A stretch of 64,000 nucleotides of DNA from Candidatus Poribacteria bacterium (GCA_965116925.1 OZ220744.1:5216001-5280000), one strand, 5' to 3'; positions 55,313 through 58,501 are shown, numbered from the stretch's first letter. Numbers and translations are program-made. The notes: generated by a model from the letters alone, not told the origin.

Positions 55313-58300
55313 ATGTCACACAACATCACTACATTTTGGCACAAGGAATCCTTTGAGGAATTGATGAAAGAACGGCTGCCAGAGCTTCTTGCTGACCGGG
55401 TGCCGCTCGCCGGTTATCATTTTGATTCAACCGGAGGATACACCTGCCGTGTCAGAATCGTGCTGGCATCAACTGAGGGCTATGTTGAGGTTGAATACAT
55501 GGACATTCCGCAGCCTGATGGAAACGGTATGTTCACTCTCGACGGTGAACCTTATGTTGTCGTGCCGCTCGCTTCAACCGTGGAACTGGAACAAGCGAAA
55601 ATTGAGTGTATGGGTGATCAACTGTACGACTACTTCAAGGCGCGTATCAGGGAAGCACCGCCGGATATAGAATGGGATACGTCGCTTGTCCGCTCATGGC
55701 TTCCGATTGATAGATGGGTGCGTGAATTCTTTAGTGATACATTCACCGCTCAGGAACTGTCCCATACTAACTGGCTCGACAAACATACACATCTACGTCG
55801 GGTACGGATTTCGCAGGGGAATCAGGTGTTTAGCCCCGGACACTTTGGACGGACTTGTCCATTTGAAACGCCAGAGGGACCAAATGTTGGCAAGATTCTG
55901 ACGATTGCGAGGGGTGCGGAGATTCGCGATGGAAAATTGGTCATCATGGATGAAAGTCCTGAAGCAACACTTGGTCTGTCCGCCGCACTGATCCCTTTTC
56001 TCGAACACAATGATCCGCCGCGAATACTCATGGGTGCGAACATGATGCGCCAATGGTTGTCTCCTTCTGCTCCAGAAACCGCACCGATTAGCTGTCCCAA
56101 CGGAGTGTCAAGAGTGGCTGCTTCTCCGGAACCTGCGCTTGTCCAGACAGGGTACGAGCCTGATGCTCCCGACTTTTGGTGTGGGCGTAATCTGTTGACC
56201 GCTTTTATCTCTTGGGGCGGGGATACCTTTGAGGACGGCATCGCGATTAGTGAATCGTGTGCTGCGCGTCTAAATTTTCCTTACGCTATTGAACCGGGCG
56301 ATAAAATTAGTAACCGTCACGGAACGAAAGGGGTCATTTCGCGCATCTTACCTGACGATGAGATGCCCCATCTTGCCGATGGCACACCGGTAGAACTCGT
56401 TTTCAGTTTTGGTGCTTTGCATGGACGGATGAACTTTGGTCAAATCCGAGAAGCCGTCATGGGCCGCATTGCGCGGGCGGAAGGAGAAACCGCTATTGTG
56501 CCGCCATTTCAAGCCCCCAATGCCGATCAACTCCGTGAGCGACTCCAAAAGGTAGGCCTGCCTGAAGATGGGATGGAAACCCTCACGTCTGGACCTAACG
56601 GTAAGAAACTGGATCGACCGAGTACGGTTGGTTGGGTCTATTGGGGAAAGACGGTTCACATCGCGCTGGATAAGCTCAAGGCCTCCGAACCCATCGTTCA
56701 CGAGGCACCTATATACCATCAGGGGCTTGGCGAACTTGAATACTATACACTACGCAACATTTCAGCATTTGAGACATTGCGAGAACATTTCAACACCCGT
56801 GCTTCAACGCGAGTAGATGCGGAGACACTTCCCGATCGCGTTACGGGGGGGACAGTTGAGCAGGCGGGACCACCGACGCCGATGTTTGCCAATCTCAAGG
56901 AGCGACTGTCGGCGGGGGGCATCCACGCTAACTTTGATGGTGACAAACTGACCTTCCAATTTGCGAGTCCAATTGGGAATACACTCCAGCTTGCCCAGCC
57001 GGTTCCCCATCCGTGGCTACATGCTCAAGCTATTGATGAAGTTGGTATATGTGAAGACATTTCTGAGTATCGTGCACTTGCCGATGTCAATGCTAGAGCA
57101 GAGCGAATGTTTGCAAATGATGCGCCGGAAAGCCTAACCCTCCAAACCCTCAAACAACTCCAAACACGTCTTGCAGAATATTTCGACGCACTTCTAAGTC
57201 CCGCAGATATGCGCTTTACGGCACGGACGCTTTTCAGCGGGCGCAGCGTCATCGTACCAGATGCGGAGTTACGTGCTGATCAGGTTGGCATCCCTGAGCA
57301 GATGGCGTGGGCACTTTTCGGGCTGCAGGTTGCAAGAGAGCTTGGTGATACCAAAGAGGTACAGGGAAAAAGCCAGAGGGCGACGCATCTCCTTGATGAA
57401 TTGATGGCGCGTTCATGGGTAATTGTACATCGAGCACCTGCGTTTACGCCTACCTCCTTTGTTGCATTCCATCCAGTGCGGCAGCCAGACCGTGCCATTC
57501 GTGTTCCTCCCTTTGTTTGTGAATTAATGAACGCTGATTTTGATGGCGACCAAGCGGCGATTTTTCTGCCCATCACAGCGGAGGGTCAACGGGAAGCCGG
57601 TGAGCAGCTGTCTATCGCTGGGCATCTCAAACGAGATCCGAATATATGTGCAGCCTTAGCCCCGGGACATGATGCGATATGGGGGTTGGCAAGTTTAAGT
57701 CTCACACCCGAAGGGCGTGATGAACTCTCAGAAATTGTCGGGATGGAGATTGTTATTCCTGAAGGTTTGGTCACGCGGCACTCGTTAGCGGATACGCTGA
57801 AAACACTCCTCAAACGCGAAGGGATTGATCGCACCATTGAAGTCGCTGAACGTCTGATGCAGCGTGGACTCGAAATTGTAAAGGAATCGGGAGCATCTAT
57901 GAGTCCGTTCCTCAGTAGAGGCGATGGTAGTCCGCCCGTTCCTACAGATCCCGATGATGCAGCAGCGTGGAATGCTTACGCGGAAGAACTTATGGAATGG
58001 ATTGCCGCTTACGAAAACTTTGCTGATAACAACTTGGGACCACACATCCTCGCAGTCAAAAGCCGCGCCTTTACAAGCAGACTTTATCGACTCGCGTGTG
58101 TTGTCGGGGCACGAGGGACAGTTTCAGATATTCGAGATTTCGTTTGGACAATCAGGATGGTGGCAAGCCGAGGATTTGCACAAGGGACAGTTTCAGGCAT
58201 TGGAGACGGGGATATCGTGATTCGTAACGGGTATTGCGATGGTTTAACATCTGATGAACTTTATGCGCTCTGTGTCGGATCACGGGAAGGGCTTGTTCGA

Positions 58301-58501
58301 TTCAACTCCGAACTACAACGCGTTGCATGGGAACTACGCGACAGCAGCCAATCAAAAGGATTTACTGTGCTGTCTCGTGCGATGCGAGCCAAGCAGCCCG
58401 GTATCGTTTTCGCACGCGCCGCAGCGTGCGGTGAAGTTGATCCGCTTACAGATATTGACAGCCGGCTTTTCGTCGGGCTGCCCGTCACAACGTCCGAGTG
58501 A
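55313..58501 (+). CDS. Miniature single-chain RNA polymerase-like protein: fused, heavily reduced beta (RpoB) + beta-prime (RpoC)
   Basis: Beta motifs GRTCPFETPEGPN, LIPFLEHND..R.LMGANM.RQ, FEDG, GDKISNRHGTKG, RMNFGQ and GELE, then beta-prime motifs SGRSVI, HRAP and NADFDGD, all in colinear order in one ORF; AGGAGG RBS. Confidence 0.92.
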   Translation: MSHNITTFWHKESFEELMKERLPELLADRVPLAGYHFDSTGGYTCRVRIVLASTEGYVEVEYMDIPQPDGNGMFTLDGEPYVVVPLASTVELEQAKIECMGDQLYDYFKARIREAPPDIEWDTSLVRSWLPIDRWVREFFSDTFTAQELSHTNWLDKHTHLRRVRISQGNQVFSPGHFGRTCPFETPEGPNVGKILTIARGAEIRDGKLVIMDESPEATLGLSAALIPFLEHNDPPRILMGANMMRQWLSPSAPETAPISCPNGVSRVAASPEPALVQTGYEPDAPDFWCGRNLLTAFISWGGDTFEDGIAISESCAARLNFPYAIEPGDKISNRHGTKGVISRILPDDEMPHLADGTPVELVFSFGALHGRMNFGQIREAVMGRIARAEGETAIVPPFQAPNADQLRERLQKVGLPEDGMETLTSGPNGKKLDRPSTVGWVYWGKTVHIALDKLKASEPIVHEAPIYHQGLGELEYYTLRNISAFETLREHFNTRASTRVDAETLPDRVTGGTVEQAGPPTPMFANLKERLSAGGIHANFDGDKLTFQFASPIGNTLQLAQPVPHPWLHAQAIDEVGICEDISEYRALADVNARAERMFANDAPESLTLQTLKQLQTRLAEYFDALLSPADMRFTARTLFSGRSVIVPDAELRADQVGIPEQMAWALFGLQVARELGDTKEVQGKSQRATHLLDELMARSWVIVHRAPAFTPTSFVAFHPVRQPDRAIRVPPFVCELMNADFDGDQAAIFLPITAEGQREAGEQLSIAGHLKRDPNICAALAPGHDAIWGLASLSLTPEGRDELSEIVGMEIVIPEGLVTRHSLADTLKTLLKREGIDRTIEVAERLMQRGLEIVKESGASMSPFLSRGDGSPPVPTDPDDAAAWNAYAEELMEWIAAYENFADNNLGPHILAVKSRAFTSRLYRLACVVGARGTVSDIRDFVWTIRMVASRGFAQGTVSGIGDGDIVIRNGYCDGLTSDELYALCVGSREGLVRFNSELQRVAWELRDSSQSKGFTVLSRAMRAKQPGIVFARAAACGEVDPLTDIDSRLFVGLPVTTSE

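Follow-up and report, generated by a model that had tools for sequence, protein, structure and literature searches.

Locus organisation and fold of the mini-polymerase

The stretch of DNA analysed here (the window; 64,000 nucleotides (nt) of a Candidatus Poribacteria bacterium, GCA_965116925.1, OZ220744.1:5216001-5280000) carries two neighbouring genes on the same strand. The first encodes an extracytoplasmic function (ECF)-type sigma factor; the second encodes a 1062-amino acid (aa) protein, hereafter the mini-polymerase, in which a pruned beta subunit of RNA polymerase (RNAP) is fused to a pruned beta' subunit (Table 1). A first-pass annotation, made from the sequence alone, had described the second gene as an uninterrupted open reading frame (ORF) with a strong ribosome-binding site, which is indeed what the sequence holds, and every motif position that it gave agrees with the translation. 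Its guess for the clamp helices (57068) falls within a modelled helical hairpin and its estimate for the bridge helix overlaps a modelled helix. GGAGG-like sites are also found ahead of the polymerase start in most of the other loci described below.

Domain searches recovered parts of both large subunits in this single chain. Only three Pfam domains were found, all exceeding their curated cut-offs: RNA_pol_Rpb2_3 (residues 149-204, E 6.9e-9), RNA_pol_Rpb2_6 in two stretches (E 4.5e-41) and RNA_pol_Rpb1_2 (residues 691-764, E 2.5e-18). Against PDB sequences, phmmer matched bacterial beta chains over residues 129-530 (E to 9.6e-46) and beta' chains over residues 638-804 (E about 1e-18). The best NCBIfam models were those for bacterial rpoB and for beta/beta' fusions, all scoring far under their cut-offs: the rpoB model TIGR02013 reached 184.9 bits for a cut-off of 801, as against 138.5 and 113.4 bits for archaeal rpoB models, and the rpoC model reached 82.2 bits for a cut-off of 963.5. 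Judged by score and identity, the family is bacterial-like.

An AlphaFold2 model built on 75 diverse family members was confident (predicted local distance difference test, pLDDT, 92.7; predicted template modelling score, pTM, 0.91), with the exception of residues 944-963. In a full VIA-align search of PDB representatives, residues 2-542 superposed on a bacterial beta subunit (6j9e_C; Z 22.0, root mean square deviation (rmsd) 2.9, 518 aligned, 31% identity) and residues 541-1062 on the beta' subunit of Mycobacterium tuberculosis (6edt_D, chain residues 5-1265; Z 17.3, rmsd 3.4, 488 aligned, 25% identity). Residues 4-151 matched the isolated beta1 domains 3mlq_A (Z 10.4, rmsd 2.9, 134 aligned, 19% identity) and 4kbj_A (Z 9.6, rmsd 3.3, 131 aligned, 20% identity). 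Residues 11-1060 aligned to the single-chain enzyme QDE-1 (7y7p_A; Z 10.1, rmsd 4.9, 394 aligned, 12% identity), and the whole model also aligned to the RNA-dependent enzyme RDR2 (Z 8.3). Since the QDE-1 alignment spans both halves, it fits a face-to-face arrangement of the two barrels, like that of genuine two-barrel polymerases. The earlier description of a pruned beta fused to a pruned beta' is thus borne out by Pfam, by phmmer and by a confident model whose halves superpose on beta and beta', respectively.

Besides a beta1-like N-terminal domain, the beta-like half has the fork (Rpb2_3) and hybrid-binding blocks, a double-psi barrel of the beta type devoid of the flap insert, and the C-terminal part of beta. 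The beta'-like half comprises short N-terminal hairpins, the clamp helices, the beta' double-psi barrel bearing NADFDGD, funnel-like helices, the bridge helix and a 50-residue C-terminal tail. In bacterial RNAP, the clamp helices are the canonical docking site of sigma region 2.

The genome, a single 6.47 Mb contig that is 99% complete, also encodes a canonical rpoB (1378 aa) and rpoC (1439 aa) about 1 Mb from the two genes on the same chromosome, as the first-pass annotation had supposed. A hidden Markov model (HMM) of the mini-polymerase family matched residues 495-630, 701-756, 840-875 and 1126-1359 of this RpoB, and only residues 287-536, 616-666 and 718-817 of this RpoC. Lacking an HMM counterpart, and thus lost, are the lobe and flap of beta and, from beta', most of the N-terminal clamp together with the trigger loop and jaw, as these regions are named in established RNAP structures. 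For the flap, the HMM found no counterpart of RpoB residues 876-1125 and the model contains no inserted domain; only about 20 residues separate the FEDG and GDK blocks, between which canonical beta has a flap of ~250 residues. The first 286 residues of RpoC are unmatched, save for short hairpins and the LAQPVPHPW block, which align structurally to the beta' N-terminus. In canonical beta' the N-terminal region houses the zinc-binding region, the zipper and the lid. As to the trigger loop and jaw, the HMM matched nothing in RpoC past residue 817; merely 50 residues follow the modelled bridge helix, and this tail is near-invariant.

A 23-residue insertion ahead of the bridge helix is missing from the 1039-aa orthologues in five other loci (L001, L002, L003, L010 and L005) and present in other close orthologues of 1061-1062 aa. 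It may be a tandem duplication, since it resembles the segment directly ahead of it.

Table 1. Features of the locus; positions are counted from the first letter of the window.
Feature	Residues	Position (nt)	Strand	Remarks
Conserved ECF-type promoter		54452-54489	+	Upstream of the sigma gene
ECF-type sigma factor gene	204 aa	54498-55112	+	Pfam and NCBIfam
Dispersed repeat, roughly 100 nt		55139-55262	+	Between the sigma and polymerase genes
Dispersed repeat, further copies		near 54262-54380 and near 58524-58640		Flanking the sigma gene; downstream of the polymerase gene
Shine-Dalgarno AGGAGG of the polymerase gene		55302-55307	+	Ends five bases ahead of the ATG; read from the sequence
Mini-polymerase gene	1062 aa	55313-58501	+	Unbroken ORF
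Beta-like half	1-545	55313-56947	+	Structural match of model residues 2-542 to bacterial beta; family HMM
GRTCPFETPEGPN block	from 179	from 55847	+	Matches the first-pass position
LIPFLEH..MMRQ block	from 226	from 55988	+	Matches the first-pass position
Beta active-site blocks FEDG and GDKISNRHGTKG	306-309 and 329-340	56228-56332	+	Start at 56228 and 56297, matching the first-pass positions
Beta'-like half	546-1062	56948-58501	+	Structural match of model residues 541-1062 to M. tuberculosis beta'; family HMM
LAQPVPHPW	from 560	from 56990	+	Matches the first-pass position
Clamp-helix hairpin	584-627	57062-57193	+	Model helices 584-601 and 606-627; inside HMM match to own RpoC 287-536
NADFDGD catalytic metal-binding motif	740-746	57530-57550	+	Matches the first-pass position
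23-residue insertion	941-963	58133-58201	+	Disordered in the model; pLDDT <50 over 944-963
Bridge helix	980-1012	58250-58348	+	Model helix; inside HMM match to own RpoC 718-817

Active-site conservation and selection

Over 75 aligned family members, the residues expected at an RNAP active site are almost always kept. The metal triad is retained in nearly all of them (D742 in 72, D744 in 73 and D746 in 72), as are D330 (75/75), K331 (70/75), R335 (75/75) and K339 (71/75) of the beta active-site blocks and the beta acidic pair (E307 in 65, D308 in 69). Arginines R162 and R372 are each present in 74 members, R707 in 65 and P709 in 66. The glycine G977 is invariant and the C-terminal block (R1022, A1023, A1036, A1037, L1045, G1055) near-invariant. 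Strong conservation extends to an N-terminal helix in which W9, H10, L22 and P23 are invariant or nearly so.

Among the gene of the window and five orthologues from Poribacteria, the ratio of non-synonymous to synonymous substitution rates (dN/dS; Nei-Gojobori) ranges from 0.11 to 0.19 over the whole polymerase gene and drops to 0.02-0.11 in residues 301-400, 701-800 and 1001-1062; the segment holding NADFDGD (701-800) stands at 0.04-0.11. The corresponding range for the sigma gene is 0.09-0.28. By these ratios the mini-polymerase is under strong purifying selection, and the selection on the active site that had been proposed from the intact metal triad and beta lysines is seen both in their near-invariance and in a dN/dS far under 1.

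These data bear directly on a reading in which the mini-polymerase would be a non-catalytic mimic of core RNAP, sequestering the sigma factor through its retained clamp helices. ECF operons usually carry an anti-sigma gene at the very place that the polymerase gene occupies here, no other conserved partner or anti-sigma gene was found, and the clamp helices are kept. A decoy, however, needs no conserved active-site residues, whereas the metal triad, both beta lysines, the arginines of the nucleoside triphosphate (NTP) and hybrid sites and the bridge-helix glycine are near-invariant and dN/dS is lowest there. We consequently regard such a role as highly improbable.

Distribution and origin of the family

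The mini-polymerase belongs to a large family. A word-indexed protein search gave 1043 proteins at E ≤ 1e-3 among 8000 scored candidates; the best 120 of these are all 990-1106 aa long, carry the same Pfam pair or triple and, where named at all, are called 'hypothetical protein' or go by the names of their Pfam domains. An exhaustive search of representatives at 50% identity returned 569 proteins at E ≤ 1e-30, and the best 150 include many full-length forms of ~1000-1100 aa, along with fragments. Two ESM Atlas clusters (135 and 73 members) display the same architecture. With homologues sharing its deletions and fusion junction this abundant, the fusion recurring in hundreds of clusters, and with the dN/dS values given above, an assembly chimera or one-off decay, which the first-pass annotation had considered, is ruled out.

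Among species-representative genomes, 21 loci (L001-L021) were found to hold family members, the 56 other loci kept being canonical rpoB-rpoC. Carriers belong to the Poribacteria, Planctomycetota (Planctomycetales, Phycisphaerae, Brocadiaceae), Chloroflexota (Anaerolineae, Caldilineaceae), Latescibacterota, Myxococcota (Myxococcales) and Hydrogenedentota. Within the phylum of the window, the polymerase is present in 30 of 151 genomes; carriage is 19/25 in family f1, 9/10 in f2 and 0/100 in f3, and 14/19 in the genus of the window itself. Polymerase identity does not follow taxonomy, Chloroflexota proteins standing at 53% and those of the second Poribacteria family at 46-47%, which suggests horizontal transfer.

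A tree combining the 75 family members with canonical beta+beta' pairs, 36 in number and drawn from several phyla (FastTree, midpoint rooted, 732 aligned columns, all rows kept, no outgroup) showed the family and the canonical pairs to be reciprocally monophyletic, separated in this unrooted comparison by a branch of about 1.3 substitutions per site. The family may be either an early branch or the product of fast evolution after fusion. Of the earlier proposal of a second, accessory RNAP derived from the cellular enzyme, the first part holds, given the separate rpoB-rpoC; the second, derivation from the cellular enzyme, is one possibility given the reciprocal monophyly.

A conserved sigma factor partner and its promoter

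The upstream gene encodes an ordinary ECF sigma factor according to Pfam (Sigma70_r2, E 7.4e-17; Sigma70_r4; Sigma70_ECF) and NCBIfam (TIGR02937, 114.8 bits for a cut-off of 42.9). Its sigma-2 and sigma-4 domains are linked by an acidic stretch with a conserved P-x-W-(M/L)-(I/V)-D motif. The first-pass annotation had mentioned this neighbour solely as a possible cofactor for activity assays. It turns out to be a strictly conserved partner gene: in all 20 testable loci, a tblastn search located a sigma orthologue directly upstream of the polymerase and in the same orientation, L021 standing outside this count as it starts within the polymerase gene. Sigma identity ranges from 38 to 89% and tracks polymerase identity across the loci. 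In the part of the ECF re-classification paper that was covered (PMC7826278), RNAP-subunit neighbours go unmentioned; its genomic-context supplements may bear on the point.

The two genes are tightly packed outside the Poribacteria. From sigma stop to polymerase start the distance is -4 to +25 nt in 12 of 12 loci outside the Poribacteria, and 73-263 nt within the Poribacteria, where the gap in the window holds a copy of a dispersed repeat. A GGAGG-like site is frequently embedded in the final codons of the sigma gene (W-E-E). In L008, L009, L012, L015 and L016 this C-terminal W-E-E is encoded by TGGGAGGA, which is also the Shine-Dalgarno sequence of the overlapping polymerase gene; conservation of the tail may hence reflect translational coupling and not sigma function.

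Across the 151 genomes of the phylum, the polymerase was found in 30 and the sigma orthologue in 31, both lying within 3 kb of each other in 29 of the 30. The sigma gene of the two sigma-only genomes is broken, with two stops in one (G050) and a mere fragment in the other (G084). With 29 of 30 linked and sigma-only genomes holding a broken sigma gene, the pair is inherited and lost as a unit. In one genome (G011), about 3 kb separate the sigma and polymerase genes, where relatives have less than 100 nt, which points to an insertion within the operon.

Upstream of the sigma gene lies a promoter-like sequence made of TGAAC (54452-54456), a 15-nt spacer, GGTGTC (54472-54477), six bases and the purine-rich block AGTGAA (54484-54489). 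The same three blocks, with an invariant 15-nt spacer, recur in most of 20 regions (the window and 19 loci) from several phyla, L007 and L016 having one-base variants; the sigma factors of these phyla share as little as 38% identity. ECF promoters typically, though not by definition, have AAC at -35 and GT(C) at -10. The resemblance of TGAAC-N15-GGTGTC to this type suggests that the sigma factor regulates its own operon.

A strict form of the pattern matched five times in the 6.47 Mb genome, against once for a control. Five other carrier genomes have two to seven strict matches each, the promoter of their own module being recovered every time. Among these genomes one further site looks convincing: in a genome of the second Poribacteria family (G155), a second copy of the promoter, third block included, lies upstream of a long membrane-protein ORF (L098, 1501-1540), which is possibly a regulon member there.

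A proposed two-gene transcription module

We give about even chances to the view that the two genes form a self-contained transcription module, in which a dedicated ECF sigma factor docks on the retained clamp helices of a single-chain minimal core and the module has its own promoter. Under this proposal, both genes would be co-transcribed from the ECF-type promoter. The mini-polymerase, which has kept the beta1 domain, fork, barrel and hybrid-binding blocks of beta as well as the NADFDGD barrel and the clamp, funnel and bridge helices of beta', would be an active nucleotide polymerase on DNA templates, independent of alpha and omega and working like YonO, a single-chain enzyme devoid of a trigger loop. 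The sigma factor would bind it directly, through region 2 on the clamp helices, and direct it to TGAAC-N15-GGTGTC promoters, its own first, thereby closing a positive loop. Speaking for the module are the domain order and the confident single-chain model, the conserved catalytic residues and low dN/dS, the strict linkage and joint loss of the two genes, and the conserved promoter. Sigma region 4 would have to find a new dock, for which the conserved N-terminal helix (W9, H10, L22, P23) is, speculatively, one candidate. A more specific version can be put forward only tentatively, at somewhat less than even chances: a two-protein orthogonal system with a core of ~115 kDa that has neither flap nor trigger loop, would do without alpha and omega, and whose own ECF sigma factor, held by a non-canonical region 4 dock, lets it fire from these conserved promoters, its own included.

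Several observations weigh against a module of this kind. With the flap, the canonical dock of sigma region 4, and most of the beta' N-terminal clamp missing, the canonical holoenzyme geometry would be impossible; it is the loss of the flap and of the zinc-binding-region clamp that makes the new dock necessary. No regulon is visible with the strict pattern in the genome of the window, since the module promoter is the only match outside long ORFs and the four others lie inside them. The family block SGARG ahead of the bridge helix reads SRAFTS in the clade of the window. The module is also accessory and dispensable: the polymerase was not detected in four congeneric genomes of 98-99% completeness, nor in any of the 100 genomes of the sister family f3, and one genome (G093) carries a broken copy.

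Structure prediction of the sigma factor in complex with polymerase residues 1-796, a construct ending ahead of the bridge helix and C-terminus, gave an interaction prediction score from aligned errors (ipSAE) of 0.36 (three runs, 0.32-0.39), the best control scoring 0.00; at least 30% of contacts were shared between runs, with a partner pLDDT of 62 or more. Of 157 solved complexes, 116 reach the mark, as do 2 of 215 mismatched pairs; passes at 0.60 or under comprise 18 of the 157 solved complexes and both mismatches. The score may, moreover, reflect likeness to solved structures, since sigma and core are a textbook pair. The prediction, which returned no interface, speaks weakly for binding. 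Logan contigs from three RNA libraries (two studies) matched parts of both genes at a depth of 2-9 and 90-99% identity; short, of low depth, without start or strand information and possibly due to DNA carry-over, they are at most a weak hint of transcription. The weakness of both results counts against the module.

Some of these observations feed an alternative that we consider rather unlikely, in which the sigma factor would serve host core RNAP only, switching the operon on, and the mini-polymerase would be a sigma-independent effector resembling YonO. The -35 and -10 blocks of the promoter are of the usual ECF kind and the sigma factor is a normal two-domain ECF protein. The flap and the beta' N-terminal clamp keep sigma regions 2 and 4 properly spaced, and the mini-polymerase lacks the former and most of the latter. 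The predicted complex is likewise a weak one, and the authors of the YonO study, in the part of PMC5467207 covered, leave it open whether that enzyme recognises promoters alone or needs additional factors. Against this, the genes are coupled or overlapping in all 12 loci outside the Poribacteria and sigma identity tracks that of the polymerase, both of which are typical of physically interacting partners, and the clamp helices are kept though most of the remaining clamp has been pruned. Decay of the sigma gene upon polymerase loss fits the host-core alternative as well as a sigma factor dedicated to the mini-polymerase.

Comparison with known enzymes

To our knowledge, cellular-type RNAPs are regarded as invariably large multisubunit machines, and the single-chain relatives we know of are either barely recognisable (YonO, QDE-1 type) or borne by eukaryotic plasmids. 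The mini-polymerase is clearly a bacterial-type beta-beta' enzyme at ~40% of the normal size, found in at least six phyla and tied to a sigma factor despite its lost flap. It shares block order and catalytic motifs with canonical beta and beta', and its nearest sequences and structures are bacterial, at 25-31% identity. It differs from them in being one chain of 1062 aa as against 1378 + 1439 aa in the same genome, in forming a clade separate from the 36 canonical pairs, and in falling short of the full domain set and the equivalog cut-offs.

Fusions of the Helicobacter/Wolbachia type also join beta to beta' in one frame. They are full length and the only RNAP of the cell. A full-length rpoBC fusion is ruled out here by the scores of the fusion models (NF011417, 177 bits for a cut-off of 4632; NF007172, 155 for 5372) and by the separate rpoB-rpoC. 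The non-virion RNAPs of phages AR9 and phiKZ offer another class for comparison, being reduced beta/beta'-type enzymes without alpha. The beta barrel region of jumbo-phage enzymes matched model residues 215-550 (7s00_C, Z 21.1; 7ogp_C, Z 18.4). Unlike the mini-polymerase, the AR9 and phiKZ enzymes consist of several polypeptides, are phage-encoded and have no sigma-family factor; they also retain a flap-type insert, according to the part of PMC7824862 that treats them.

YonO of the Bacillus prophage SPbeta is, as described in the covered part of PMC5467207, a single chain of ~100 kDa with two barrels, a DxDGD-type metal site and no trigger loop that coexists with host RNAP. It resembles the mini-polymerase in having both barrels in one polypeptide and in lacking the trigger loop, and so provides, on the strength of that description (PMC5467207), a precedent for catalysis without this element. 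No sequence relation between the two was detectable (BLASTP E 1.4; hhalign probability 0.2%, over 24 columns around the metal motif), which rules the mini-polymerase out as a YonO relative. The mini-polymerase differs further in being recognisably beta/beta', in lying outside a prophage and in its dedicated sigma factor.

The nearest analogue in print, going by published description, is Orf6 of the Kluyveromyces lactis cytoplasmic plasmid pGKL2, a 982-aa Rpb2::Rpb1 fusion from which about half of each parent has been deleted (PMC2919709, in part). Both proteins have the order second-largest then largest subunit, a similar size of ~1000 aa and heavy pruning. Orf6, compared here by description only, differs in its eukaryotic lineage, its linear yeast plasmid and its lack of a sigma factor. 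The barrels of killer-plasmid beta subunits retain a flap insert (sandwich-barrel hybrid motif, SBHM) in the covered part of PMC7824862, one that the mini-polymerase lacks. The latter is neither of eukaryotic type nor plasmid-borne, as its best matches are bacterial and its gene lies on a 6.47 Mb chromosome. Searches of the full-text literature turned up no account of a sigma-linked mini beta-beta' enzyme on a bacterial chromosome, within a coverage that excludes Iyer and Aravind 2012 (J Struct Biol), where an earlier mention is possible.

Other fused enzymes of intermediate size surfaced in the same searches. In the representative library, P0264 (1948 aa) and P0270 (2309 aa) contain RNA_pol_A_bac and RNA_pol_L domains followed by beta and then beta' domains, and appear to be reduced-size alpha-beta-beta' triple fusions. 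Further ESM Atlas clusters consist of single proteins of 1221-1787 aa with Rpb2_6 and Rpb1_2, one of them named for inorganic pyrophosphatase as well as RNA polymerase domains. These clusters hint at a wider radiation of fused RNAPs of intermediate size.

If the two-protein system exists as proposed, it would be the smallest sigma-dependent RNAP known and a natural autocatalytic gene circuit, and the metagenomic single-chain forms, triple fusions included, would mark a broad unexplored radiation of compacted cellular-type RNAPs. An active mini-polymerase would show which parts of RNAP are truly required for sigma-dependent transcription and would offer synthetic biology a compact orthogonal pair of sigma factor and core. 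It also raises the question of what role a second, private polymerase plays in environmental bacteria with large genomes. As promoter, sigma factor and core are all defined, the proposal lends itself to direct testing in vitro.

Genomic context and mobility

The sigma and polymerase genes are the only ones common to loci across phyla. All-against-all clustering of ORFs from 22 sources revealed no third conserved gene, whether for alpha, omega, an anti-sigma factor or a target. ORFs directly downstream in seven loci are unrelated, save for one pair shared by two related Latescibacterota loci. In the window, the neighbours encode oxidoreductases, a beta-helix protein, BioD, MFS transporters and DprA. 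The DprA-family gene (DNA_processg_A; 47867-49475, minus strand) adjoins a 200-aa ORF without a Pfam match, and large ORFs lie upstream at 43896-47821 and 49497-50405. In 14 other loci, the flanking genes (105 ORFs) are of mixed and largely metabolic kinds; L019 adjoins an integrase fragment, and L006 adjoins PD-(D/E)XK, PLD and NB-ARC/TPR-Mrr genes.

The absence of phage genes nearby, noted at first pass, was confirmed around the locus and extends to sequence collections. No full-length copy was found among 50,697 phage records (none of the 37 matching records covers ≥80% of the query) or 72,556 plasmid records (none of 68), all matches being canonical rpoB/rpoC; matches in PHROGs are to full-length beta and beta' families. 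A phage or plasmid origin is rejected for lack of such copies in these records and in view of BFVD viral structures, which match worse than cellular beta. PADLOC gave no match for the polymerase and one marginal match for the sigma factor (E 9e-4).

These results also bear on whether the mini-polymerase belongs to a conflict or mobile system that has spread horizontally, either as a back-up transcriptase for when invaders or antibiotics disable host RNAP, or as an RNA-templated or primer-making enzyme. Its distribution is patchy within the genus and over distant phyla, its identity does not follow taxonomy, pseudogenised copies exist, the L006 and L019 neighbours are of a suitable kind, and QDE-1 and RDR2, to which the model aligns as a whole, are RNA-dependent enzymes. 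On the other hand, PADLOC has no meaningful match for either protein, full-length phage and plasmid copies were not found in the records searched, and the flanks of the 14 loci are mostly ordinary metabolic genes without a recurrent partner. A promoter-recognising sigma factor, furthermore, argues for double-stranded DNA templates. We judge a role in conflict or mobility to be improbable.

As for the sigma-polymerase module itself, a dispersed repeat surrounds its genes in the window. The copies on both sides of the sigma gene align to each other, and the third copy, downstream of the polymerase gene, was located from contig joints. The 27-nt core GATTGTAGTTGCCCGATTTATCGGGCG has 59 copies in the genome, against none for a control, which makes it look like an element of the repetitive extragenic palindromic (REP) or miniature inverted-repeat transposable element (MITE) type; its ends are partly palindromic. 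This genome-wide copy number rules out the sigma-flanking repeat as a regulatory element specific to the module. The repeats occur at very high depth in contigs from the RNA libraries.

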